Shown piece after piece: positions 3,584 to 63,178 of a stretch of 64,000 nt of DNA. Within the stretch, counting starts at the first letter, position 1; each line of letters opens with the position of its first letter. The translations under genes were made by a program, and so were the position numbers. Under the pieces are notes generated by a model. That model was not told the DNA's origin and did no database searches. It saw nothing but the letters and a program-made list of their open reading frames with translations. This stretch comes from a bacterium (GTDB taxonomy: Bacteria; Patescibacteriota; Minisyncoccia; UBA6257; MFKM01), in assembly GCA_030693325.1 (NCBI GenBank), contig JAUYAV010000019.1:134618-198617 (forward strand), given 5' to 3'.

Positions 3584-4210
3584 ATGCGCATTAAAAATAA
3601 CAAAGGCCAGGCCCTGATAGAAATTCTTGTCGGTTTGGCTGTGGGCGCTATTTTAATAGGCGGGGCGACTGCGGCGATAGTGGCAATTTTGCGTTCCAAT
3701 TTGGAAAGTAAAAATTTTCAAGCCGCTTCTTCTCTGAGTCAGGAATTATTAGACGATGCCAAAACGATGGCCGAAGCCGACTGGCATAATATTTATAATT
3801 TAAGCAAGGGTTCCGGCACCCAATATTACGTGGCGGCTTCCGGTACAGTCTTGGCTGTTTTTTCCGGTACCACCACAACTCTGGTTGGAAATATCACTTA
3901 TACCAAATTTTTTTCCATAGAGGATGTCGGCCGTGATTCCTCCAATACTATCGTGGCCAGTGGCGGCACTGATGACCCCTCTACTCAAAAAATCACCAGC
4001 CATGCCCAGTGGCCAAGCGCCGGTAAAACATCGGATGTGCCTCTTATTGTTTATTTGACGCGCTGGCGAAATATAATTTCTCAACAGACCAATTGGTCGG
4101 GAGGGGTTGGTCAGACGGAGCCAGTTCTTGAATTCAGCAATCAATTCGCCAGCTCCACGGGTATTGATTATTCCTCCAGTACCGGCTCAATCATTATTCA
4201 GGGATTTTAA
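3584..4210 (+). CDS. Prepilin-type protein (second pilin/pseudopilin)
   Basis: N-terminus NKGQALIEILVGLAVGAIL: G|QALIE prepilin motif. Confidence 0.75.
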   Translation: MRIKNNKGQALIEILVGLAVGAILIGGATAAIVAILRSNLESKNFQAASSLSQELLDDAKTMAEADWHNIYNLSKGSGTQYYVAASGTVLAVFSGTTTTLVGNITYTKFFSIEDVGRDSSNTIVASGGTDDPSTQKITSHAQWPSAGKTSDVPLIVYLTRWRNIISQQTNWSGGVGQTEPVLEFSNQFASSTGIDYSSSTGSIIIQGF

Positions 4211-4212
4211 GA

Positions 4213-4394
4213 GCAAACCAAACTTGCCCTCGAAAATCCCGACTTCGTCGAGGATCCTCGATTTATCGGGACCAGAATAATTTTGCTCCAGCGACAAAAT
4301 TTTCTTTTCCCTCGTTCCGCTGGCTCTCCGCTTCGCTCCGAGGCCAAGCCCAGCGGAACTGCGGGATATTTTCTCAGACAAGTTTGGTTTGCTC
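4213..4394. repeat. GC-rich ~180-bp segment bounded by a 16-bp inverted repeat (gagcaaaccaaacttg / caagtttggtttgctc)
   Basis: Perfect terminal inverted repeats seen directly; internal palindromes (tcgaggatcctcga); no convincing ORF. Confidence 0.5.
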
Positions 4395-4423
4395 TAAGAA
4401 AGAGTTTTTTCCTAAAGGAAGTT

Positions 4424-4461
4424 TACTATTGTAATTCCACGATCGTGGAATTACAATAGTA
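4424..4461. repeat. 38-bp perfect palindrome TACTATTGTAATTCCACGATCGTGGAATTACAATAGTA (copy 1 of 3)
   Basis: Identical copies at ~55180 and ~62817; here it sits just upstream of the grpE promoter. Confidence 0.9.
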
Positions 4462-4475
4462 GGTGAATTTTATAG

Positions 4476-4503
4476 TTGACTTTGATTTTTTTGAAATTAT
4501 AAT
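4476..4503 (+). promoter_or_regulatory. Sigma70-like promoter for grpE-dnaK (TTGACT-N16-TATAAT)
   Basis: Near-consensus -35 and -10 hexamers 18 nt upstream of the grpE start. Confidence 0.55.
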
Positions 4504-4520: not shown

Positions 4521-5078
4521 ATGGAAGAACAAACAACTCAACCAGAAGAAATTAAACCCGCCTCCGCTGACTCGGCCTCCATAGCCGAAGCTACTTCGGC
4601 GAAGGAGGCAGCTTCGGCGGGCAAGGAAGAAAAAACAGAGGACGAATTATCAAAATGCCAAAAAGAAAAGGATGAATATCTTGACGGCTGGAAACGCGCC
4701 AAAGCCGAACTTATCAATTATAAAAAAGATGAGGCTAAGCGGTTTGAAATAGTGATAAAGCTGGCTAATGAAGGACTGATTAAAGAATTATTATTGGTTT
4801 TGGACAGTTTTGATTTGGGATTGGCATCTTCGGAAAAAGAAGGTTCGGCGCAAAAAGGGATGTACTTGATTCGTTCGCAACTCAAGGATATTCTTAAATC
4901 TTACGGCTTGGAGGAAATAGAAACTTCGCCCGGCGAAAAATTTGATATAAATATTCATGAAGCAGTGGCAGAAATAGAATCAGATCAGCCGTCTGGAACT
5001 GTGATTGAAGAAGTTGAAAAGGGTTATTTATTAAACGGCCGGGTCATCAGGCCGGTTAGAGTAAGAATTTCTAAATAA
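4521..5078 (+). CDS. grpE: Nucleotide exchange factor GrpE
   Basis: 185 aa; acidic N-terminus, coiled coil and a GrpE-like C-terminal region; directly upstream of dnaK. Confidence 0.8.
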   Translation: MEEQTTQPEEIKPASADSASIAEATSAKEAASAGKEEKTEDELSKCQKEKDEYLDGWKRAKAELINYKKDEAKRFEIVIKLANEGLIKELLLVLDSFDLGLASSEKEGSAQKGMYLIRSQLKDILKSYGLEEIETSPGEKFDINIHEAVAEIESDQPSGTVIEEVEKGYLLNGRVIRPVRVRISK

Positions 5079-5086
5079 AATAAAAT

Positions 5087-6889
5087 ATGGCAAAAATTTT
5101 AGGCATTGATTTAGGGACAACATATTCGGCGATGGCGGTTATTGAAGCGGGGGAGCCGAAAATAATTGAAAACGCCGAGGGCAACCGGACGACGCCTTCC
5201 GTTGTATCTTTGAGCAAAAACGAGGAACGGCTGGTGGGTTTGCTGGCGAAACGGCAATCAGTCACCAACCCCAAAAACACTATTTTTTCAGTGAAACGTT
5301 TAATTGGCCGGAGGTTCACCGACAAAACCGTCCAATATGATAAGACCTGGTTTTCGTATGAAATTAAGGAGGGAGCTAACGGCGGCGTGGAAATAAAAAT
5401 GGGCGACCGTTGGTATAAGCCCGAGGAAATTTCGGCGATGATTTTGCAAAAATTCAAAGCGGATGCCGAAGCCAAACTGGGAGAAAAAATTGATGAAGCG
5501 GTTATCACCGTGCCGGCTTATTTTGACGACAGTCAGCGCCAAGCGACCAAAAACGCCGGAGAAATCGCCGGATTTAAAGTGCGGCTTATTCTTAACGAGC
5601 CGACAGCCGCGGCTTTGGCTTATGGTTTGAATAAAAATAAAAACGAACAGATTATTGTCTATGATTTCGGCGGCGGCACTTTTGATATTTCCATTCTGGA
5701 AGTCAGCGAAGATGTCATTGAAGTAAAAGGAACCGGCGGCGACACCCATTTGGGCGGCGATGATTTTGATAAAAGAATAATTGATTATTTGGTTTCCGAA
5801 TATAAAAAACAGGAAGGGGCTGACATTTCCAAAGACCCGTTGGCTTTACAGCGCTTAAAAGAAGCGGCTGAACGTGCCAAGCACGAACTTTCTACCGCTT
5901 TAGAAACCGAAATTAATCTTCCTTATATTACGACCGATGCTTCCGGTCCCAAACATTTCCTGATGAAATTAACCCGGGCTAAACTGGAAGAATTAGTCGG
6001 CGATTTGATTGAGCGCTCCATAAAATTAGTTGATGAAACTTTAAAAGAAGCGAACTTCAAACCCGCGGACATTGAGCAAATAGTTTTGGTCGGCGGCCAG
6101 ACGAGAATGCCGGCGATTCAGGAAGCGGTCAAAAAATTTTTCGGCAAAGAACCGCATAAAGATGTCAATCCGGATGAAGTGGTAGCGGCCGGAGCGGCTA
6201 TTCAGGCCGGAATTCTTCAGGGCGAAGTAAAAGATATTCTGCTTTTGGATGTTTCGCCTTTAGGCCTAAGTATTGAAACTATGGGCGGAATCGCGACCCC
6301 GATGATTCCGAAAAACACCACCATCCCAACGGCTAAAACCCAGGTTTTTTCCACGGCGGCTGACAGCCAGACGGCGGTGGAAGTTCATGTGCTTCAGGGA
6401 GAGCGGGAAATGGCGGCTGACAATAAAACTTTGGGCAAATTTTTTCTTGACGGAATTCCGCCGGCGTCTCGGGGCGTGCCCCAAATTGAAGTCACTTTTG
6501 ACATTGATGCTAACGGCATTTTGAATGTTTCCGCTAAAGATAAAGCCAGCGGCAAAACCCAGTCAATCAGAATTGAGGCGACCACTTCATTAAATAAAGA
6601 AGAAGTGGAGAGGTTGAAACAGGAAGCGGCGCTTCACGCCGAAGAAGATAAGAAAAAGAAAGAGTTAGTGGAAGCGAAAAATCAGGCGGAGTCATTGATT
6701 TATCTGGCGGAAAAAACGCTGAAAGAAAACGGCGAAAAAATCGGCCAGGAAGCCAAAGATTCCTTAACGGCAAAAATAGAAAAAATAAAATCAACCAAAG
6801 AAAGCGATAATACAGAAGAAATCCAAGCGGCGGTCAACGAACTTTCTCAAGCTCTTCAAGACATCGGCAAAGGATTGTATAATAAATAA
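5087..6889 (+). CDS. dnaK: Molecular chaperone DnaK (Hsp70)
   Basis: [18 protein letters not shown]; DLGGGTFD; full Hsp70 ATPase and substrate-binding domains. Confidence 0.97.
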
Positions 6890-10218: not shown

Positions 10219-11098
10219 AGTTGAGAAATTTTACGAGCGGCTTGGCAGGCCGTCTGGTGATTTTTCTTTGAAAAGACGCCAGCAGGACGTTCTTTTTGAC
10301 AAAAAGTGGCTGCGGTTTCTGAAACTATCGCATTTTTTCAGGCATTTGCCTTTTATAGATTTTATTTTAGGAGCCGGGTCAATGGCGCTGGGGAATGTCC
10401 ACCAAGATTCGGATTTTGATGTTATTGTTGGAGCAAAATCCGGCAGAATTTTTACGGCCAGATTTTTTTGTATTTTAATGTTCGGTTTATTGGGCCGGCG
10501 CCGCCACGCTAAGCGTGGCTATCTGCCCCGCTCAGCGGGGCGCCAAAAACTTTCACATCGGGAAGCCGCCAGTAATAAAATTTGTTTTAATCATTTTGTC
10601 ACTCCGCGGAGTTATTGCCTGAAACCGCCCCACAATATTTATTGGCGGGAACTTTATCAGAATTTGGTTCCGATTTACGGCCGAAAAGAAAAAATCAGGG
10701 AATTTTTTGAAGCCAATAATTGGATGGGGGAGCGGATTTACCCCGTTAGAAGTTCAGCTAAGTTTTCGGGTTTTTCAACGAACGAAAGCGAATTCGCCTG
10801 CGGCTCCAATTTTTCAAAGAAAAAAGCTTTGTTGAAAACTTCTAACGGGGTTTATTCCGATGACTTGCGCCATGGATTTTATGAGCCGAGTTTTATTGCT
10901 TCTATTTTGGAAAAAATGTTAAGCGGCCGGTTTGGTGATTTTATAGAACGAATATTGAAACAAATTCAAATTAAAAGAATTAAAAAAAGCCCGAAAGACA
11001 GTTTGGGATTTGAGCCGCGAATGGTTTTCAATAATGATGAACTGGAGTTTCATCCCGACACCTTGAGAATCCATAAATTGCTGTCCGATGAAAAGTAA
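10202..11098 (+). CDS. Hypothetical protein with a Pol-beta-like nucleotidyltransferase motif (GS…DSDFDV). It hosts a copy of the GC-rich in-frame element.
   Basis: GAGSMALGNVHQDSDFDVIV; GC-rich palindromic insert at 10498-10545. Confidence 0.4.
   Translation: MKTENKVEKFYERLGRPSGDFSLKRRQQDVLFDKKWLRFLKLSHFFRHLPFIDFILGAGSMALGNVHQDSDFDVIVGAKSGRIFTARFFCILMFGLLGRRRHAKRGYLPRSAGRQKLSHREAASNKICFNHFVTPRSYCLKPPHNIYWRELYQNLVPIYGRKEKIREFFEANNWMGERIYPVRSSAKFSGFSTNESEFACGSNFSKKKALLKTSNGVYSDDLRHGFYEPSFIASILEKMLSGRFGDFIERILKQIQIKRIKKSPKDSLGFEPRMVFNNDELEFHPDTLRIHKLLSDEK
10498..10545. repeat. GC-rich ~48-bp double-hairpin element (GGCGCC-GCCACGCTAAGCGTGGC-TATCT-GCCCCGCTCAGCGGGGC-GCC), in-frame inside the CDS
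   Basis: Near-identical to the reverse complement of 18810-18855 inside fusA. Confidence 0.85.
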
Positions 11099-14659: not shown

Positions 14660-15490
14660 CTAAAGTCCGAATAATCTAATAGCGTTTTGATAAGTTTGCT
14701 CCGCCACTTTTTCCAAGGAAAGACCGCAAATTTCGGCTATTTTTTGAGCCGTGTACTTGACATAAAGCGGTTCGTTTCTTTGGCCACGGTAGGGGACAGG
14801 CGCCAAATAAGGGCAGTCGGTTTCAATCAATATTTTTTCCAGCGGCATATCTCTGATAATGTCGTCATAGTCGGAAGAATAGGTGATTATTCCTGTAAAC
14901 CCGAGATACAAACCTAAATCCAAATATTGTTTCGCCTGTTGACTATTGCCCGAAAAACAATGGACTACGCCTTTAAATTGATATTCGGTATTTTTCAATT
15001 CTTTGATGAGTTCATCATAAGCTTCACGGCAATGGATGATAAGCGGTTTATCTAATTCTTGAGCTAATTTTAAATGGTTTAAAAATAATTCTTTTTGTTT
15101 GATTCTTAGTTGCGGATCGGTTGTCCGATAATAATCCAGGCCGGTTTCGCCGACAGCCACAACCTTATCAGAACTTTTTGCTAAAGCTAAATATTTTTGG
15201 TAATCAAAATTTTCATCTCCGACATGGGTAGGGTGGAGCCCGATAGCCGCCCAAACTCCTTTTTCGTAATTTCCGGCGATAGCCACCGCTTTTTCGCTGG
15301 TATCATATCTAGAGCCGACATTAATCAGCCAAAGATTTTCATCAAGGCATTTTTTGATGATTTTCGGATAGTCGTCATTAAAGGCCTTGAAATTAAGATG
15401 GCTGTGGGAATCAAAAAATTTCATAATAAATTTATAACGCATTTTATCTATAAGAGCAACTGGATTTCGCATTTGCGAGTTATAAAACAA
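14660..15490 (-). CDS. tatD: TatD-family metal-dependent hydrolase/DNase (TTG start)
   Basis: FDSHSHLN motif; conserved TatD His/Asp/Glu residues. Confidence 0.85.
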   Translation of the reverse strand: MFYNSQMRNPVALIDKMRYKFIMKFFDSHSHLNFKAFNDDYPKIIKKCLDENLWLINVGSRYDTSEKAVAIAGNYEKGVWAAIGLHPTHVGDENFDYQKYLALAKSSDKVVAVGETGLDYYRTTDPQLRIKQKELFLNHLKLAQELDKPLIIHCREAYDELIKELKNTEYQFKGVVHCFSGNSQQAKQYLDLGLYLGFTGIITYSSDYDDIIRDMPLEKILIETDCPYLAPVPYRGQRNEPLYVKYTAQKIAEICGLSLEKVAEQTYQNAIRLFGL

Positions 15491-17412: not shown

Positions 17413-17551
17413 TTGACCCCGTTAGAAGCCTGACGAATCCTAAATTAAGCAACAATCAACAAAGTCCTGTTTAAAATAAAAATTTAATTCAATCTAGAAA
17501 CAGAAAAATTTAATAAATTTTTCTGTTTTAGGGCTTCTAACGGGGTTGACA
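17413..17551. repeat. Family-A palindromic MITE-like element, copy 1 (TIR ACCCCGTTAGAAGCC…GGCTTCTAACGGGGT). Its right end carries a TTGACA -35 box for rpsL.
   Basis: 15-bp terminal inverted repeats and internal hairpin acagaaaaattt…aaatttttctgt; homologous copies at ~22583 and ~58841. Confidence 0.85.
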
Positions 17552-17573
17552 ATCCTTTTGATTCCAGTATTAT
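17546..17573 (+). promoter_or_regulatory. Putative promoter of the rpsL-rpsG-fusA operon (TTGACA-N16-TATTAT)
   Basis: The -35 lies inside the right terminus of the family-A element. Confidence 0.5.
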
Positions 17574-18521: not shown

Positions 18522-18575
18522 GTAATTACTGTAATTACAGTAATTACAGCAATTACAGCAATTACCGTAATTACT
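18522..18575. repeat. Six tandem 9-bp repeats GTAATTACN in the rpsG–fusA spacer
   Basis: gtaattact gtaattaca gtaattaca gcaattaca gcaattacc gtaattact. Confidence 0.9.
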
Positions 18576-18584
18576 ATTTTTTTT

Positions 18585-20711
18585 ATGCGTCAATATCCTT
18601 TAGAAAAATATCGTGATATCGGCATCATTGCCCACATTGATGCTGGGAAAACAACCGTTTCCGAACGGATTCTTTTTTACACCGGAATTTCCCATAAAAT
18701 CGGCGAGGTTCATACCGGCGATACCGTTATGGACTGGATGGAGCAGGAAAGAGAAAGAGGAATTACGATTACGGCGGCGGCCACGACTTGCTACTGGACC
18801 CCGACTTACGGCGCCCCGCTGAGCGGGGTAGATAGCCACGCTGAGCGTGGCGGCGACGAATACAGAATCAATATTATTGACACTCCGGGCCATATTGATT
18901 TTACCGTTGAAGTTCAGCGTTCACTGAGGGTGCTTGACGGCGGAGTGGTTGTTTTTGACGGCGTGGCGGGAGTGGAGCCGCAGTCGGAAACGGTCTGGCG
19001 TCAGGCGGACAAATACAAAGTGCCGCGGATTTGTTTTGTGAACAAGCTTGACAGGATGGGAGCTGATTTTGAAAAAACTTTACGGTCCATCAGAGAGCGC
19101 TTGCACCCGAAACCGGCAGTGCTTCAGTGGCCTATCGGCCTTGAAGAAAAATTTGAAGGCGTTATTGATTTGTTAAAACGGCAGGCCTTTTATTTTGAAG
19201 GGGATCATGGTGAAAAAATAATTGCTAAAGAAATCCCGGAAAATTTTAAAAAAACGGCTGAAGAAAAAAGAGAAAAATTAGTGGAGATGATTGCCGAAAC
19301 CGATGACAATTTATTACATCGCTATCTTGAAGGCCAGGAAATCAGCCAAGAGGATTTGAAAAAGACGCTAAGAGTTGCCTCCTTAAAAGGAGAATTAATT
19401 CCTGTGCTTTGCGGCAGCGCTTTGAAAAATAAAGGCGTTCAGCTTCTCTTGGACGCGGTTGTTGATTATTTGCCTTCGCCGCTTGATTTGCCGCCGGTAA
19501 AAGGCATTAACCCGGATAATCAAAAAGAAGAAGAAAGGTCAGCTAAAGACGGGCAGCCGTTTGCCGCTCTGGCTTTTAAAATCGCAACCGATCCGTTTGT
19601 GGGCTCGCTGACTTTTTTCCGGGTTTATTCCGGGGTGCTTCAAAAAGGGACTTATGTTTTAAACGTTTCCAAAAATTCTCAGGAAAGAATCGGCCGGATT
19701 TTGCGAATGCACGCCAATCACCGGGAAGAAGTGGATGAAGTTTGCGCGGGCGACCTTGGGGCTTTTGTGGGTTTAAAAAACACCACGACCGGAGATACTC
19801 TTTGCGACCCCGAGCACCCGATTATTTTGGAAAAAATTGTTTTCCCCGAGCCGGTCATTTCTATTCGGATTGAACCGAAAACCAAAGTTGACCAGGAAAA
19901 AATGTCTATGGCTTTGCATAGGCTTTTAGAGGAAGATCCGACTTTCAAAGTGATTGGCGACCCCGATACCGGCGAAACTATTATTTGGGGGATGGGGGAG
20001 CTTCATTTGGAAATTATTGTTGACCGGATGAAACGGGAATTCAGCGTTGAATGCAGTGTCGGCCGGCCTCAAGTGGCTTACAAGGAAACCATAGTTGGAA
20101 CGGCTGAAGCCGAAGGCAAATACATTCGCCAATCCGGCGGTCGCGGTCAATACGGTCATGTCTTTTTGAGAGTGGAACCCTTGGAACGAGGGAAGGGCTT
20201 TGAATTTGTTAATGCTATTAAAGGAGGCACTATTCCCTCGGAATTTATTCCGGCCGCGGAAAAAGGAGTTAAAGAAGCGATGGACAAAGGCGTTTTGGCC
20301 GGCTATCCTTTTGTTGACACCAAAGTCACGCTTTATGACGGTTCTTACCACGATGTTGATTCTTCGGAAGCGGCTTTCAAAATCGCCGGGTCTATCGCTT
20401 TCCAGGAAGCGGTAAAAAGAGCCAAAATGGTTTTACTGGAGCCGATGATGAAAGTTCAGGTGATTACCCCGCCGAATTTCTTGGGCGATGTCACTGGCGA
20501 CCTTAACGCCCGCCGGGGCAAGATTGAGGCCATGACCGAAAGAATTGGAATTAATGTCATTGACGTGAAAGTTCCTTTGTCGGAAATGTTCGGTTATGCC
20601 ACTAATATAAGGTCAATGACCCAGGGCCGCGGCAGTTTCACGATGGAATTTAACAGCTATGAAGAAGTGCCCAATAATATTACTCAGCGGATTGCCGAGG
20701 GCAAAAAATAA
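18585..20711 (+). CDS. fusA: Elongation factor G. It carries a ~12-aa insertion, encoded by the GC-rich element, just before the [11 protein letters not shown]3 motif.
   Basis: [14 protein letters not shown] and full EF-G domains. Confidence 0.97.
18810..18855. repeat. GC-rich double-hairpin element inside fusA, in reverse orientation relative to the copy at 10498
   Basis: ggcgcc-ccgctgagcgggg-tagata-gccacgctgagcgtggc-ggcg encodes [18 protein letters not shown]. Confidence 0.85.
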
Positions 20712-22585: not shown

Positions 22586-22708
22586 ACCCCGTTAGAAGTC
22601 ATGACGAATTCCAAGCTAAATAATTATTAACGGGAATGGAAATTTAATTTATTTTCCAAAAACAGAAAAAATTTTAAAATTTTTTCTGGCCAAGACTTCT
22701 AACGGGGT
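22583..22708. repeat. Family-A palindromic element, copy 2, inserted between rpsJ and rplC
   Basis: CCCCGTTAGAAGTC…GACTTCTAACGGGG with the same internal acagaaaaa/tttttctg hairpin. Confidence 0.85.
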
Positions 22709-22719
22709 TTAAAACAAAT

Positions 22720-23169
22720 ATGAGTTTAATAACAGGAAAAAAATTACAAATGAGCCAGATTTTCAAAGACGGAAAAGTAATTCCGGTTACCCCGATTAAG
22801 GTTGCCGATATTTCGGTTTTTAATGAAGGCGAATTGCTCAAGATAACCGGAATAAGCCGCGGTATAGGATTTCAGGGCGTAGTCAAACGCTGGGGTTTCC
22901 ATGGCGGACCGAAAAGTCATGGGGGTAAACACAGCTTGCGGGCTCCAGGCTCAATCGGCTCAACCGCGCCTCAGCGGGTGTTAAAAGGCAGGAAAATGGC
23001 CGGTCGAACCGGCGGCCGCCAAAAAACCATCGGAAATCTTGAAGTAGTTTCTTTAAATAAAGAAAATGCCGTTTTAATGGTGAAAGGAGCGATACCCGGC
23101 TATAAAAATTCAGAAATTAAAATTCAGAAAGACGCCAGTCATAAAGCATTAAAAAAGAAATTACGGTAA
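22720..23169 (+). CDS. rplC: 50S ribosomal protein L3 (short, 149 aa)
   Basis: L3 N-terminal KKLQMSQIF…GFQGVVKRWGF. Confidence 0.9.
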   Translation: MSLITGKKLQMSQIFKDGKVIPVTPIKVADISVFNEGELLKITGISRGIGFQGVVKRWGFHGGPKSHGGKHSLRAPGSIGSTAPQRVLKGRKMAGRTGGRQKTIGNLEVVSLNKENAVLMVKGAIPGYKNSEIKIQKDASHKALKKKLR

Positions 23170-23199
23170 TTGCCGTAATTACTGTAATTACAGTAATTT
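23170..23199. repeat. Three tandem TTAC[AT]GTAA 9-mers in the rplC–rplD spacer
   Basis: ttgccgtaattactgtaattacagtaattta. Confidence 0.85.
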
Positions 23200-23841: not shown

Positions 23842-23859
23842 GTAATTACAGTAATTACA
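23842..23859. repeat. Two tandem GTAATTACA 9-mers in the rplD–rplW spacer
   Basis: gtaattacagtaattaca. Confidence 0.8.
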
Positions 23860-23867
23860 AAAAAACT

Positions 23868-53719: not shown

Positions 53720-55169
53720 ACCCACTATTGGTTTGGAAATTCACTCTGAATTAAAGACCAGAAGCAAAATGTTTTGTGCTAGTCCGAATAACCCCGATGA
53801 AACCCGGCCTAATTTCAATGTTTGCCCGATTTGCCTGGGGCATCCCGGAACCCTGCCGGTTATTAACGAAGAAGCCGTAAAATCAGTTATCAAGCTGGGC
53901 TTGGCTGTTGCCGGGAAAATTCCTTTAGTTTCCCGTTTTGACCGCAAAAGTTATTTTTATCCCGACTTGCCCAAAGGTTATCAGATTTCCCAATATAAAC
54001 AGCCGTTGGTGGAGGGCGGAACTTTGAACGGCGTTAAAATCACCAGAGTCCATTTAGAAGAAGATACTGGCACGCTTTCTCATGATAAAGAAAATCACAG
54101 TTTGGTGGATTTCAACCGCGCCGGCGTTCCTTTAATGGAATTAGTTACCGAGCCGGATATCAGAAGCGGTGAAGAAGCGGTGGCTTTTGCCAAAGAATTA
54201 CAGCTTATTTTACGGTATCTGGATATTTCCGAGGCCAATATGGAAAAAGGGCAAATGCGGGTGGAGGTAAATATTTCGCTTCGTGAAATCGCGGATATCA
54301 GCATGAATCAGTTTGATAATCAGCATGAATCAGCGTCTACCTTAGGAACTAAGGTAGAAGTAAAAAATTTAAATTCTTTTAAGTCGGTGAAAGAGGCGGT
54401 TGATTATGAAATAAAAAGACAGACTGAAATTTTAGAGGAGGGGAAGCAGGTGATACATGAAACCCGCGGCTGGGATGACGTAAAAAGAATAACAGTCAGT
54501 CAGCGCAGTAAGGAAAAAGCCCATGATTATCGTTATTTTCCGGAACCGGATTTGCCGCCGCTGGATTTAGTCAAATTTAATATTAAAGAATTGAAAGATT
54601 CGCTTCCGGAATTGCCGGCGGCAAAAAGAAATCGTTTTGAAAAAGAATATGGCCTGACGCTGGCCCAGGCGGAAATTCTCATTGAAGATAATTATATCGC
54701 CGGATATTTTGAAAAGGCCGTGAAGGAACTTAAACTTCTGGCTTCAGATTATAAACCCCAAGTTTTGTTTAATTATTTAACTTCAGACTTTTTTGGCTTG
54801 ATAACCGAACAGGGGATTTCTTTAAAAGAATCAAAAATCAATCCGCGGCAGTTAGCCGAACTAACGGGTTTGATTATTGAAAATAAAATTTCCAGCCGAA
54901 TCGCCAAGGATGTTCTGGGAGAAATGTTTTTATCCGGCTTAAACCCGCGGCAGATTATCCAGGAAAAAGGATTAAGTCAGATTTCTGATGAAGCGATAAT
55001 TAAAAAAACTATAGAGGAGGTGATAATGGAAAATTCGGCGGCCTTGTCTGATTATAGAAAAGGCAAAGCCAATGCCTTGCAATTTTTAATCGGTCAGGCG
55101 ATGAAAAAGCTCAAAGGCCAAGCCAACCCTGAAATCCTGAAAAATCTTTTTGAAGAATCTTTACGATAA
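53712..55169 (+). CDS. gatB: Asp/Glu-tRNA(Asn/Gln) amidotransferase subunit B. It contains the in-frame AATCAGC mini-repeat.
   Basis: PTIGLEIHSELKT; full GatB/YqeY domains. Confidence 0.92.
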   Translation: MYKPTIGLEIHSELKTRSKMFCASPNNPDETRPNFNVCPICLGHPGTLPVINEEAVKSVIKLGLAVAGKIPLVSRFDRKSYFYPDLPKGYQISQYKQPLVEGGTLNGVKITRVHLEEDTGTLSHDKENHSLVDFNRAGVPLMELVTEPDIRSGEEAVAFAKELQLILRYLDISEANMEKGQMRVEVNISLREIADISMNQFDNQHESASTLGTKVEVKNLNSFKSVKEAVDYEIKRQTEILEEGKQVIHETRGWDDVKRITVSQRSKEKAHDYRYFPEPDLPPLDLVKFNIKELKDSLPELPAAKRNRFEKEYGLTLAQAEILIEDNYIAGYFEKAVKELKLLASDYKPQVLFNYLTSDFFGLITEQGISLKESKINPRQLAELTGLIIENKISSRIAKDVLGEMFLSGLNPRQIIQEKGLSQISDEAIIKKTIEEVIMENSAALSDYRKGKANALQFLIGQAMKKLKGQANPEILKNLFEESLR

Positions 55170-55179
55170 TCAAAAGATT

Positions 55180-55217
55180 TACTATTGTAATTCCACGATC
55201 GTGGAATTACAATAGTA
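55180..55217. repeat. 38-bp perfect palindrome, copy 2, between the convergent gatB and miaA genes; it overlaps the last miaA codons
   Basis: Identical to 4424-4461. Confidence 0.9.
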
Positions 55218-58840: not shown

Positions 58841-58973
58841 CACCCCGTTAGAAGTCTGGTTCATGTTTAATAATGATTATTATTTTAATTAAAAATTCAT
58901 ATTTGATTAACCTATCTGTTATGACAGAAAAATTTCTATAGAAATTTTTCTGTTCAAGACTTCTAATGGGGTT
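58841..58973. repeat. Family-A palindromic element, copy 3, filling the gap between the dnaE stop and the thrS start
   Basis: CCCCGTTAGAAGTC…GACTTCTAATGGGG with the internal acagaaaaattt…aaatttttctgt hairpin. Confidence 0.85.
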
Positions 58974-61900
58974 CATAATTCTCTTGCTTCGTTGCAGATA
59001 ACTTTAGTTTCTCCGTTTCTTAGGGAAAGCTGGCCGTTTATCATCAAGATATTATTTTCTTTCCAAAGATTGGGATTTTTGGAAAAAGTTTCGGAGAAAA
59101 CAATGACTTCCAAATTATCGCTTAAATCTTCAATTTTGACAAACAGCATCGGTTGGCCCCTCTTGGTTATAATTCTCTGGATACTGGAAACCACACCGGC
59201 CACTTTAAGCCGGGCCCGGTCTTTGAGCCCGCCATTCATTGTCTCTTTTATCGGCTGGACGCGATTTTCTTTGAGTTGATTGGTATATCTTTTAAGGGGA
59301 TGGTCGGAAATATAAAGTCCCAAAAGTTCTTTTTCCCAGGATAATTTCGTTTTGGCATCGGCGGCTTCAACCTGATTCAGTTTAAGTGAAGTTAATTTTG
59401 GCTGGTAATTGAAAAGGCTGTTCTGGTTGCTTAATTTATTTTTTTTACTCAAAGAATTAAATTTCAATAATTCTTCGCTGTTTGATAGGGCGGCCTGTCT
59501 TTCAATGCCCATTGAATCAAGGCAGCCGCTTTTTATCAAACTTTCCAGGGATTTTTTATTAAGGTCGCGGTGGTTAACCCGGTTGAGAAAATCCGGCAAA
59601 CTTTCAAACGGTCCGCCCCGGCCGCGTTCTTCAATCATTATAGAAACGATATTGGCGCCGATGTTTTTAACGGCTAAAAGTCCGAAACGGATATTGTTGG
59701 AATTTTCCGGAGCGAAATCGGTATAACTTTTATTGATGTCAGGCGGTAGGACGATAATATTTGCTTTTCGGGCCTCATTAACCAGAAAGGCGATGCGTTC
59801 AATGTCATCGGTGTTGGCGTTTAATAAGCTGCTAAAAAATTCCACCGGATAATGAGCTTTGAGATAAGCGGTTTGATAACCGATAAGGGCGTAGCAGGTG
59901 GCATGGCTTTTATTAAATCCGTATTGGGCAAATGGTTCAAACCATTGCCAGATTTTTCGGGCGGTTTTTTCTTCAATGCCGTTTTTGATCATGCCTTCAA
60001 TCATTTTTTCGGCCTGGGCCTGAAGCAGGGATTTTATTTTTTTACCTACCGCCTTTCTCAAAATATCGGCTTCGGTCAGAGAAAAACCAGCGAGGTCGCG
60101 GGCGATGGTCATTAGTTGTTCCTGATAAATGGCAACACCATAAGTTTTGGCCAAAATTGGCTCCAACCGCGGATGAAGATAAGTGATTTCTTCCTGGCCG
60201 TGTTTCCGGCGGATATATTGGGGGATCAATTCCATCGGCCCCGGCCGGTATAAAGAAACCATGGCGATAATATCCTCAATTTCACTCGGTTTTAATTGTT
60301 TTAAGTAGCCGCGCATACCAGAACCTTCCAGCTGAAAAATTCCGGTGGTTTCGGCGGCGCGCAGAAGTTCAAAAGTTTTTTTATCATCAAGAGGAATTTT
60401 ATTGATGTCAATTTCTTTTTGATAAATGTCTTTTATTAATTTCAAAGTGTTTTCAATAATGGTCAGGTTGCGGAGGCCCAGAAAGTCCATTTTCAGAAGT
60501 CCTAAATCTTCAATGCTGTGCATTTCAAACTGGGTAATGATGATATCTTTGTTTTGCGGCGCATATTGAAGCGGCAAATAATTAGTAAGAGCTTCTTTTG
60601 AAATCACCAGGCCGCAGGCATGGACCGAGGCGTGACGGGCAACACCTTCCATTTTTTTCGCTGAGTCAATTAATTTTTTGGCGTTGGCATCGTGCTCATA
60701 AAGGTCGCGCAGTTCGGTTACTTCTTCAAGCGCTTTCTCTAAGTTAAATTGAAAAGGAATCATTTTGGCGGTTTGGTCGCAAAAGCCGTAGGCGAAACCT
60801 AAAGCCCGGCCGGAATCGCGAATCGCCGCCCGAGCCGCCATTGTTCCGAAAGTGATAATTTGCGCCACCCGGTCGGTGCCGTATTTTTCCCGGACATAAG
60901 CCACCACTTCATCGCGCCGGACATCGGTAAAATCAATGTCAATATCGGGCATCTGAATACGGTCGGCGTTCAAAAATCTTTCAAAAAGCAGGTCGTATTT
61001 TAAGGGATTAATATTGGTTATGTCTAAAACATAAGAAACCAGACTGCCGGCGGCCGAGCCCCGGCCGGGCCCGACAACGATGCCCCGCTGTTTTGCCCAG
61101 GCAATAATATCCCGAACAATCAGGAAATAATCGGCAAAGCCGGTTTTTTCAATCACAGAAAGCTCGTAATCAAGCCGTTTTTTTATTTCCTCGGTGATTT
61201 CGGAAAAACGACTGGCTAATTTTTCATTAACAAGATTGCGGAGATAAGAATTAGAGGTTTGGCCTTCGGGAACGGGGAAGTCCGGCATGAGAATTTTTCC
61301 CAATTCAATTTCCAAATTACAGCGGTCTGCAATTTTAATAGTGTTAGTAATCGCTTCCGGAGTTTCTTTGAAAAATTCGGCCATTTGTTCCGGAGAGCGC
61401 ATAGAGAAATCGTCAGTGAAAGTGAGCCGGCCGGGATCATCTACCGTATTGCCTGTTTGGATTGCCAGAAGAATTTCATGATAAGGCGCGTCTTCTGATT
61501 TAAGATAATGAATGTCCTGAGTGGCTACTAAAGGCGCTCCGGTTTCTTTTGAGAGTTCAATGATAGCTTGATTAATTTTTTCGGAATCTTTTATTCCGGG
61601 GTGATGGCCGATTTCCAAAAAGAAATTTTCCGGGCCGAAAATGTTTTGATATTCAAGAATTTTTTCTTTGGCCACCGAAATTTTTTCCGCCGCAATCAGC
61701 CGCGAAATTTCTCCGGACAGGCAAGCTGAGGTCGCAATAATTCCCTCATGGTGTTGCGCTAAAAGTTCCTTATCAATTCTTGGCTTATAATAAAATCCTT
61801 CCAAATTTGATTTGGTCACTAATTGGAGAAGATTTAGCCAGCCAGTTTTATTCTGGGCCAGAAGAATTAAATGATAGGGCCGGTCGTCAATTCGGGAACG

Positions 61901-62299: not shown

Positions 62300-62485
62300 A
62301 TGAATTTAAGACAGCATATTAATATGGCAAGGGGATTGGGGATTGCTCATGCAACCGCAGTTATAGTTAATTTTAAGATGGGATTGAGAAGCGGCGACCC
62401 TAAAGAAACAGATATCAGTCAATTAACTAAGGAGGAAAAACAGATTCTGATTAATGCGGGTTTGCTGAAAAAAATGAGGAGGTGA
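62300..62485 (+). CDS. Small hypothetical protein
   Basis: Strong SD AAGGAGGTG. Confidence 0.4.
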   Translation: MNLRQHINMARGLGIAHATAVIVNFKMGLRSGDPKETDISQLTKEEKQILINAGLLKKMRR

Positions 62486-62721
62486 AAAAAATGGCGAGAG
62501 GATGTCCTGAATGTGGCAGTGAAAAAATTGTAAATGAAAATACCGGCAAAGATTTAAAGATCAAGCTTTTTGGGGAAATTTTTTATATTTGTAAAGATTG
62601 CGATTGCGAATGGACGCATTGTTATGCTGTCGGTTTCAAGGTCACTCGCCATGGAAAATTCTTCAAAAAGAAAAACAAGATTCAAATCCAAGTCCGAAAA
62701 AGAGGATTAATTGTCTCTTAA
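62482..62721 (+). CDS. Small zinc-ribbon protein (CPECG…CKDCDC)
   Basis: Strong SD GAGGAGGTG; overlaps the previous stop. Confidence 0.45.
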   Translation: MKKMARGCPECGSEKIVNENTGKDLKIKLFGEIFYICKDCDCEWTHCYAVGFKVTRHGKFFKKKNKIQIQVRKRGLIVS

Positions 62722-62745: not shown

Positions 62746-62783
62746 AAAAGCCCTGAGTTTTTACTCAGGGCTTTTTATTTATT
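62746..62783 (+). terminator. Rho-independent terminator
   Basis: aaaagccctgagtttttactcagggctttttattt. Confidence 0.75.
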
Positions 62784-62816
62784 TCCACAACACAATTTAA
62801 ATTACTAAATTCAATT

Positions 62817-62854: not shown

Positions 62855-62967
62855 AATTGGAGTTGAACTTCTTTTGCCGGGTTTGACCTTTTTTTAGAAA
62901 TATCATAAGATTAATTATTATTAATTGTATTTAGTGTGAGTAATTTGTAGTTAGGAATAAATTTTTC

Positions 62968-62996
62968 GTTTCTAATTACTAATTACTCAATTACTA
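62968..62996. repeat. Four tandem TAATTAC 7-mers upstream of rpmF
   Basis: taattactaattactcaattactaattac. Confidence 0.8.
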
Positions 62997-63028
62997 ATTA
63001 CTTAAATTTTGAGCAAAGCGAAAAATTT

Positions 63029-63178
63029 ATGGGTGGCGTACCAACAAAACATCATTCAAAATCAAAAGTCGGCCGGAGACGGTCTCAACTCTTTTTAAAG
63101 AAAGGCAAATTTGCGGTTTGTCCGGTTTGCGGCGGCCCGAAATTGTCTCATTGTTCTTGTCCGCAGTGCAAGAAATAA
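63029..63178 (+). CDS. rpmF: 50S ribosomal protein L32 (49 aa, zinc ribbon)
   Basis: Manual translation MGGVPTKHHSKSKVGRRRSQ…CPVCGGPKLSHCSCPQCKK; shorter than the ORF-track cutoff. Confidence 0.75.
   Translation: MGGVPTKHHSKSKVGRRRSQLFLKKGKFAVCPVCGGPKLSHCSCPQCKK

Follow-up and report, generated by a model that had tools for sequence, protein, structure and literature searches.

We identified a 38-bp perfect palindrome, TACTATTGTAATTCCACGATCGTGGAATTACAATAGTA (hereafter PAL), three identical copies of which lie in a 64,000-nucleotide stretch of the genome of a bacterium of the Patescibacteriota (contig JAUYAV010000019.1 of GenBank assembly GCA_030693325.1, positions 134,618 to 198,617; hereafter the window). 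PAL stays the same, letter for letter, at orthologous intergenic sites of related species while the DNA on either side of it has diverged. Our comparisons indicate that the entire palindrome is held by purifying selection, and we tentatively interpret it as a module that is read on double-stranded DNA. The three copies in the window are as follows.

4424..4461, no strand assigned: PAL copy 1, an exact match, 23 nucleotides to the right of an element resembling a miniature inverted-repeat transposable element (MITE) and 14 nucleotides to the left of the grpE -35 box
55180..55217, no strand assigned: PAL copy 2, between the convergent genes gatB (stop at 55169) and miaA, with an orthologue in L009
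62816..62853, no strand assigned: PAL copy 3, in a spacer that follows a terminator and leads to a promoter-like site ahead of rpmF-nusB-rnc, with orthologues in L007 and L083

Here and below, L-numbers (e.g. L001 and L115) are labels of PAL loci or contigs. The first-pass annotation of the window had claimed three identical copies, and this is the case, save that the third begins at 62816 and not at about 62817; the genes that it had named around them (grpE-dnaK, gatB/miaA, and a small-gene pair with rpmF) were also right for all three copies. By chance, no copy is expected in the window (0 in 100 dinucleotide-preserving shuffles). A search of the window allowing up to 3 mismatches returned no further copy, and free half-sites did not exceed chance-level matches with 2 mismatches. 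The copies are spaced 50.8 and 7.6 kb apart, with one copy per locus, and their likeness ends at the borders of PAL, beyond which they share only a T to the left and, in most cases, AA to the right. The symmetry is perfect over all 38 bp around the centre CGATCG and extends to the four bases that would form a loop. The AT-rich stem is predicted to fold into a hairpin of 17-19 bp with a GAUC loop, with a free energy of -24.5 kcal/mol as RNA (z = -7) and of -17.7 kcal/mol as DNA.

To see how far the identity extends, we compared PAL across genomes and metagenomes. In a scan of species-representative genomes, in which only the central 24 bases were fixed and the 14 outer bases were left free, 24 loci were found in three metagenome-assembled genomes (MAGs), namely 6 in Candidatus Jorgensenbacteria RIFCSPLOWO2_12_FULL_42_11 (hereafter RIFCS), 13 in Paceibacterota WB02no9_41_8 (hereafter WB02no9), and 5 in Patescibacteria H52-bin014_1 (hereafter H52), and all 24 were identical also at the 14 unconstrained bases. 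In a metagenome scan, 10 bases of each arm were fixed and the centre was left free in both length and sequence; it returned 26 matches with an 8-nucleotide spacing, of which 24 were PAL and the other 2 were unrelated. The free 8-nucleotide centre of these 24 read ACGATCGT in 23 and GCGATCGT in 1. In the window, the three MAGs, and the related metagenome contigs taken together, PAL occurs 52 times, at 41 sites that differ in their flanks. The genome-wide count, which had been suggested as a check by the first-pass annotation, is thus 5-13 matches per MAG, i.e. about 5-13 or more copies per genome and a density of about one per 20-50 kb. We note that at least 22 MAG species of Jorgensenbacteria are named in the taxonomy, and the exact core of PAL was found in only one subclade. 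No copy was seen in viral contigs, phage genomes, or plasmids; the full PAL is absent from IMG/VR, where the matches had other spacings or were a single chance half-site, and collections of phages and plasmids gave no BLAST match, so that we rejected a phage or plasmid origin. An artefact of sequencing or assembly, such as an adapter-like palindrome of 2 × 19 bp, was likewise rejected, given that PAL is found at the same sites and between orthologous flanks in independent assemblies from several projects and in a single clade. In the literature open to our searches, we found no description of this sequence or of such an element in this phylum.

Evidence on constraint comes from orthologous sites, which we defined from both flanking genes. 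Nine groups of such sites were obtained (tatD; lepA/tRNA-Lys; 2-hydroxyacid dehydrogenase/tRNA-Lys; rpmF; grpE; gatB/miaA; htpX/GGDEF; ychF; and comEC), with flanking proteins that are 70-94% identical. WB02no9, a relative of the window organism with flanking proteins that are 77-94% identical, has PAL at the positions of all three window copies. Over 15 pairwise comparisons at orthologous sites, PAL is identical at 568 of 570 positions, and the 40 nucleotides on either side are only ∼56% identical. Because neutral DNA would have gained many changes, we conclude from these alignments that purifying selection acts on the 38 bp in full. It had been suggested that the identity of the copies reflects either recent spread or strong constraint; the same figures speak for constraint and against recent spread. 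The alternative to selection, gene conversion, would have to act between 38-bp islands without flanking homology and is unlikely. Among the 41 sites, only three carry variant copies, with 1, 2, and 2 substitutions, all on one side of the palindrome, and the other 38 are letter-perfect, including the loop. Further, no more-decayed copies (3-10 mismatches) were found in ∼400 kb of related DNA. Conservation fades outward through the flanks: the first base outside PAL is a purine in all 82 flanks (75 A and 7 G), A occupies the second position in 79%, and T occupies the third in 61%. PAL begins and ends with TA, TT_AA flanks are preferred, and a search of the flanks for a second motif by k-mer enrichment returned only A/T-rich words.

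Each of the 41 sites falls between genes, in genomes of which ∼89-93% is coding. The neighbouring genes, at the 36-38 sites that could be classified, are co-directional at 22, divergent at 8, and convergent at 6, proportions near those expected if PAL were placed at random among intergenic regions. These neighbours encode TatD, two glycosyltransferases of family GT4, 2-hydroxyacid dehydrogenase, release factor 1 (RF1), ClpP, cysteinyl-tRNA synthetase, a GGDEF protein, LemA-HtpX, a transporter of the major facilitator superfamily, YchF, Def, ComEC, leucyl-tRNA synthetase, LepA, SecD, SpoU, GrpE/DnaK, GatB/MiaA, and L32/NusB, in addition to several tRNA genes. As they are housekeeping genes of many kinds, we rejected a heat-shock or other coherent regulon, and their diversity points to a generic module rather than a specific regulon. 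The copy beside grpE-dnaK had raised the prospect of a heat-shock role like that of the controlling inverted repeat of chaperone expression (CIRCE), which is not supported, as the neighbours are functionally unrelated and a related genome has no PAL at the grpE site. In agreement with the earlier remark that the sequence does not match CIRCE, the window contains no match to TTAGCACTC-N9-GAGTGCTAA at up to 3 mismatches. A third suggestion, an operator for a dimeric regulator, fares better in part: a symmetric site that acts at the DNA level is plausible and is the most attractive component of that idea, and what lacks support is the specific regulon, in whose place a general factor or RNA polymerase would have to be considered.

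The set of occupied sites is not fixed. We compared two subclades, one consisting of RIFCS and H52 and the other of the window organism and WB02no9, and all three sites that could be tested between them (tatD, grpE, and cysS/tRNA-Pro) are filled in one subclade and empty in the other. Thus, tatD is preceded by PAL in L001/L115 and L003 and by an ordinary promoter in the alignment of the window; grpE is preceded by PAL in the window and in its orthologue L008 of WB02no9, and the corresponding spacer of the RIFCS genome (L115) lacks PAL and has a TTGACT...TACAAT promoter of its own; and PAL separates cysS and tRNA-Pro in L013, and in L020 the tRNA gene and cysS are 16 nucleotides apart. Because an identical 38-mer cannot arise elsewhere by point mutation, new copies must, on this evidence, have come about by copy-paste, for instance through transposition or recombination. 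The three empty sites did not reveal a clean insertion boundary. Direct repeats flank PAL at 1 of the 41 sites (2 nucleotides) or at 5 of 41 (self-complementary AATT), the flanks prolong the palindrome at 29 of 41, and a TA duplication could sit within the 38-mer itself. We found neither a longer parent element with PAL ends nor isolated half-sites. PAL would thus have arisen and spread as a small copy-paste palindrome that resembles a MITE or a repetitive extragenic palindromic (REP) sequence, and its resident copies would now be held by purifying selection.

We next consider what PAL contains. Positions 6-11 read TTGTAA and positions 29-34 read TACAAT, with a gap of 17 bp, a match of 9/12 to promoter consensus that is present on both strands in all three window copies and retains the most conserved promoter positions (TTG; TA...T). 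As evidence for a promoter, this content is suggestive only. TACAAT also stands as the -10 box at grpE in L115, where the promoter has no PAL. The other features of the window that bear on PAL are as follows.

4429..4457, plus strand: promoter-like TTGTAA-N17-TACAAT within copy 1, from a consensus scan (9/12), with a mirror site on the minus strand at 4456-4428 (9/12)
4476..4503, plus strand: canonical grpE-dnaK promoter TTGACT-16-TATAAT (11/12), downstream of copy 1
15424..15490, minus strand: the empty orthologous site upstream of tatD, where a TTGCTC...TATAAA promoter lies 6 nucleotides before the ATG, from alignment and TatD orthology
62746..62775, plus strand: canonical intrinsic terminator of the small-gene pair, a 13-bp stem followed by a T run, 40 nucleotides upstream of copy 3
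62883..62911, plus strand: promoter-like TTGACC-17-TAAGAT (9/12), 29 nucleotides downstream of copy 3

Downstream of copy 1, grpE starts at 4521 and is followed by dnaK (GrpE and Hsp70 assigned by Pfam), and rpmF starts at 63029, 175 nucleotides past copy 3 (L32 assigned by Pfam). The minus-strand miaA stop codon (55207-55209) falls inside copy 2. At tatD, in L115/L001 and in L003, a canonical terminator is followed by PAL and then by only 10 or 18 nucleotides to the ATG, which leaves no space for another promoter; judged by its position, PAL would here take the place of the ordinary promoter in two species. Four other genes begin 9-10 nucleotides past PAL, and about ten begin 18-46 nucleotides past it. 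We note that Shine-Dalgarno motifs are rare in the window (6 of 62 genes) and that, in several first genes, the -10 box lies only 6-8 nucleotides before the ATG (window 15424-15445; L115 2340-2380), which suggests that leaderless or very short-leader mRNAs are widespread in this lineage. The presence of a Shine-Dalgarno motif was uninformative for separating first from internal genes, the motifs being too rare genome-wide. The purine that invariably borders PAL would be suitable as a transcription start.

Taking these observations together, we tentatively favour, as a reading that we consider possible and not yet probable, that PAL is REP-like in origin and is now a selected docking module on double-stranded DNA, which would combine a bidirectional promoter with a site for a putative dimeric protein. 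The dyad would provide a symmetric docking site, in which each 19-bp arm has a -35-like TTGTAA and its mirror image gives a -10-like TACAAT 17 bp away. The σ70 holoenzyme could then start transcription outward in both directions, a few bases beyond PAL, at the purine of the flank. RNA polymerase imposes no constraint on either the 17-bp spacer or the outermost bases, and we therefore propose in addition a dedicated dimeric DNA-binding protein that would read ∼19 bp per half-site, which would explain the invariance of the spacer TTCCACGATCGTGGAA and of the outermost bases. Such a binder might be a regulator, a nucleoid protein, or the DNA-binding domain of a domesticated transposase, and it might be identical with, or derived from, the enzyme responsible for copying PAL. 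The role of PAL would depend on context. It may serve as a gene's sole promoter; beside a canonical promoter, it may add a further one, upstream or divergent, or a site for protein binding; and where genes converge, it may form a boundary or a block that resembles a terminator. A bolder version, which we consider improbable, is that the 38-bp module is a universal transcription "punctuation" in these reduced genomes, read by RNA polymerase and by a lineage-specific dimeric protein (e.g. a domesticated transposase DNA-binding domain); the module would act as bidirectional promoter, insulator, or roadblock terminator according to context and be copied to new sites by the same protein.

Several observations weigh against a promoter and protein-docking module. 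The promoter match is only 9/12, and random palindromes matched for composition do as well in ∼2.5% of cases. A canonical promoter follows PAL at many sites, where PAL could be at most an extra upstream promoter, and at the ∼16% of sites with convergent neighbours, a promoter directed outward has no evident use. The distance from PAL to the start codon or to the downstream promoter is not fixed (9 to ∼200 nucleotides), a heterogeneous geometry as would be seen for a dispersed repeat. All 38 positions are invariant, which is more than known operators or promoters show, and a scan of the neighbouring proteins found no candidate DNA-binding protein beside any copy. Further, the substitutions in L067 and L073, two of the three variants, would produce G·U wobbles in the sense RNA, which hints weakly at pairing within RNA.

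This last point bears on the alternative that PAL acts as a REP-like hairpin at the RNA level, where a co-transcribed stem of 17-21 bp would be an RNase III processing site, a stabiliser of mRNA 3' or 5' ends, or a terminator poor in U-tracts. The predicted fold is very stable, 22 of 36 classifiable sites lie in short spacers between co-directional genes, and the TT/AA flanks lengthen the stem to ∼19-21 bp, roughly two helical turns; moreover, rnc is encoded in the window, and other palindromic repeats (the GTAATTAC arrays described below) occupy intercistronic spacers in this genome. At convergent gene ends, copy 2, L047, and L056 have T-rich tails on both sides and are terminator-like in both directions in a lenient scan, which copy 2 satisfies with its TTT/AAA flanks; a local terminator role at some convergent sites is therefore possible. 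As a general role, the plain bidirectional terminator put forward in the first-pass annotation is not supported: only 6 sites are convergent, and tails with at least 5 T in 8 are found in 35% where a gene reads into PAL compared with 44% on the other side, i.e. they are not enriched on the side relevant to termination. Canonical terminators in these genomes consist of a GC-rich stem and 5-6 T, and since several of them adjoin PAL as separate structures, PAL is not needed for termination there. Copies lie between a terminator and a canonical promoter at window copy 3 (also L007 and L083), at L090/L024, and probably at window copy 1, and between divergent canonical promoters at the dehydrogenase/tRNA-Lys site (L005, L034, and L087); in such placements, PAL is not expected in mature transcripts. 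An RNA hairpin would also tolerate compensatory or wobble changes and need no palindromic loop, whereas PAL is letter-perfect, loop included, at 38 of 41 sites. For this reason, a role on double-stranded DNA rather than RNA is favoured. A strand-specific test for G·U wobbles over flanks and variants was not significant, and a stem 9-10 nucleotides from the start codon would hinder initiation where Shine-Dalgarno motifs are rarely used. In a scan of the window with Rfam 15, only tRNAs reached the gathering score, and around copy 1 only generic hairpin (miRNA) matches far below threshold were seen. Overall, we regard an RNA-level role as unlikely.

The copying that is needed to explain site turnover between the subclades could also belong to an active, non-autonomous mobile element without host function, either a REP mobilised by a REP-associated tyrosine transposase (RAYT) of the Y1 type or a minimal TA-targeting MITE of two abutted terminal repeats of 17-19 bp, whose identity would reflect the requirements of the transposase. 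The TA at both ends and the preferred TT_AA flanks, the presence of another MITE-like element in the same genomes, and the vertical inheritance and long life of systems that pair RAYTs with REP doublets forming hairpins (REPINs) (PMC3337134; bioRxiv 10.1101/2021.07.10.451892) are consistent with this. However, resident copies at orthologous sites stay identical while their flanks fall to 56%, and a selfish repeat does not protect its old copies; nor are there decayed copies in the related DNA searched, target-site duplications outside PAL, half-sites, or a longer parent. No transposase or RAYT domain was found among ∼60 scanned proteins that neighbour PAL copies, and the copy number is low, all of which makes a purely mobile element improbable. 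We hold it to be very unlikely that PAL is a chromosome-organisation site, i.e. a dispersed loading or binding site for a nucleoid protein, whether ParB-, Noc-, or MatP-like or another. It shares with parS, the Noc-binding site, and matS the properties of an identical, symmetric, low-copy site found across species, its inner halves TTCCAC/GTGGAA resemble the half-sites of parS (consensus TGTTNCACGTGAAACA), and the window has no canonical parS. Against this, the gap between the half-sites exceeds that of parS by 4 bp, a length of 38 invariant bp is far beyond that of known sites of such a kind, the copies are on 13 different contigs of one MAG with no obvious clustering, strict intergenic placement is atypical of parS, and no ParB-like gene was seen near the copies. 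The arms and the central CGATCG further recall the core sites of tyrosine recombinases (lox- or dif-like, with inverted arms around a short overlap), and gene content beside copy 3 varies among the window, L007, L083, and L021, as might follow from inversion or cassette exchange. A dozen identical symmetric sites would, however, scramble the chromosome, and synteny is kept across PAL at all nine orthologous sites; the rearrangement breakpoints that we observed do not coincide with PAL, and no recombinase gene lies near the copies, which leaves a recombination site extremely improbable, and we rejected it.

Compared with described systems, the preferred docking module resembles the REP and REPIN sequences of Enterobacteria and Pseudomonas, which are short, extragenic, hairpin-forming palindromes that are dispersed, vertically inherited, long-lived, and spread by copying (PMC3337134, PMC3116915), in being an extragenic, hairpin-forming palindrome (41 of 41 sites intergenic) with TT/AA-type flanks, vertical persistence, and copying. 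REP/REPIN sequences are imperfect palindromes and form a sequence cloud of hundreds of copies beside a RAYT gene, whereas PAL is perfect, low in copy number, and near-invariant across species, and no RAYT is seen at its copies. The term "REP-like" used in the first-pass annotation therefore describes the dispersal of PAL, which is intergenic, palindromic, and copy-pasted, and does not fit its low copy number, perfect symmetry, invariance, or lack of an adjoining RAYT gene. Correia elements, which are MITEs of Neisseria, create promoters, bind IHF, and form hairpins that are cleaved by RNase III when transcribed. Like PAL, they are small palindromic intergenic repeats with TA ends, and their mix of roles resembles the one proposed here; unlike PAL, which has 38 invariant bp and no interior, they are 100-150 bp long, vary in sequence, number in the hundreds, and consist of 26-bp terminal repeats with internal sequence. 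CIRCE, the operator of HrcA, is an inverted repeat that is highly conserved across species, as is PAL, and stands at the dnaK operon, but it has a variable 9-bp spacer and is confined to chaperone operons, whereas PAL is invariant throughout, has unrelated neighbours, and is not conserved at the grpE site. parS, bound by ParB, and the OB sites of KorB are likewise identical, low-copy palindromic sites that a dimer recognises, and those of KorB have a further part in controlling transcription at promoters. These sites are 13-16 bp long, and PAL, at 38 bp, has another sequence and another half-site spacing; we rejected identity with parS, as no 16-bp match of the TGTTNCACGTGAAACA type was found in the window at up to 2 mismatches and the TTCCAC/GTGGAA halves of PAL are split by GATC. 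A CRISPR repeat was rejected on the basis of the spacing and the single copy per locus, which form no regular array, and a DNA uptake sequence (∼10-12 bp, about 1 per kb, in genes as well as intergenic DNA) on the basis of the length, sparseness, and intergenic confinement of PAL. Putative mobile promoters, defined as directional stretches of 50-100 nucleotides with at least 80% identity (Matus-Garcia et al. 2012, PMC3488235), are highly similar noncoding DNA that precedes unrelated genes, in the same genome or in different ones, and have been read as recycled promoter DNA; PAL is similar in this respect, and differs in being shorter, symmetric, 100% identical, and also present at convergent gene ends. 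We would thus group PAL with dispersed intergenic palindromes, among which it stands out because purifying selection can be demonstrated across species for the full 38 bp.

How bacteria of the candidate phyla radiation control transcription or organise their tiny chromosomes is barely understood, and PAL offers an unusually clean handle on both. A multi-copy 38-bp site that is letter-perfect across species implies that some protein or machine reads it with very high specificity, and PAL can be synthesised and tested directly without cultivating the organism. As a dispersed repeat that is demonstrably under purifying selection at orthologous sites, it also bears on the debate of whether REP-like elements are parasites or serve the host. 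On the practical side, PAL breaks short-read assemblies of these genomes, as seen in a Logan contig that begins inside copy 3.

Some individual copies have surroundings of interest in their own right. In L067, two PAL copies (245-282 and 1820-1857), one with 2 substitutions, bracket lemA-htpX; one lies 10 nucleotides upstream of lemA, and the other lies 40 nucleotides after htpX and 9 nucleotides before the GGDEF gene. In L006, PAL lies 9 nucleotides upstream of the start of RF1, and a fructose-bisphosphate aldolase gene ends 43 nucleotides beyond PAL; the RF1 open reading frame (ORF; 5029-5781) starts at position 100 of the PCRF profile and is without the usual ∼100 N-terminal residues. In L087, a tRNA-like 5' half, ccgcccatagcttaatctggtagag, is seen 40 nucleotides after PAL (∼650-735), ARAGORN reports tRNA-Lys only at 1517-1588, and a 256-residue ORF lies in between, so that the two may belong to an interrupted or intron-containing tRNA gene. 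Between dnaE and copy 3, each genome has different small genes (window 62300-62721, L007 1771-2659, L083 3556-3804, and L021 2223-3552). In the window, the genes at this variable spot beside the conserved site encode a 61-residue protein and a 79-residue zinc-ribbon protein with faint Ogr/Lar-like matches; we rejected the latter as a binder of PAL because these matches are only faint and it is absent from the orthologous L007 site.

The window strongly avoids GATC (75 observed compared with 213 expected, z = -11.9) and TCGA (25 compared with 164, z = -13.9), the pattern expected under restriction pressure, and three of its four CGATCG sites are PAL centres. GATC is thus avoided yet kept at the centre of PAL; no mechanism follows, and we rejected a link to restriction sites.

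The window also contains other repeats. The MITE-like repeat to the left of copy 1 is ∼195-240 bp long and is found at 4205-4400 of the window and in L008 (2312-2497), L006 (1071-1256), and L017 (6415-6635), with terminal inverted repeats of 25-33 bp (AGAGCAAACCAAACTTGCC... / ...GGCAAGTTTGGTTTGCTCT) that enclose a variable, GC-rich core. At 4205-4400, it is 23 nucleotides away from copy 1; its other copies have no adjoining PAL, and it is absent at the grpE site of RIFCS. A GC-rich double hairpin of 49 nucleotides is present in two inverted copies (10496-10544 and 18810-18858; 94% complementary), both in frame within ORFs, and one of them adds ∼16-20 residues to elongation factor G after ...AATTCYW, which is reminiscent of the Rickettsia palindromic elements that insert into coding genes. 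Tandem 9-bp repeats of the 8-bp palindrome GTAATTAC are found at 18522-18575, 23157-23198, 23842-23860, and 62975-63010 (8 exact copies compared with 0.54 expected), where they occupy short intercistronic spacers of ribosomal-protein and translation operons just ahead of start codons; TAATTAC repeats that are related to these arrays precede rpmF, and the arms of PAL hold versions of GTAATTAC with one mismatch (GTAATTCC / GGAATTAC). Finally, a conserved motif in which an AT-rich hairpin (ACAGAAAAATT..AATTTTTCTGT) is followed by CAAGACTTCTAACGGGGTT is present at 17513-17552, 22675-22714, and 58939-58978 of the window, twice upstream of plus-strand genes and once between dnaE and thrS, and CTCTAACGGAGTT, which is similar to the CAAGACTTCTAACGGGGTT motif, directly abuts PAL on the left in L040 and L073.

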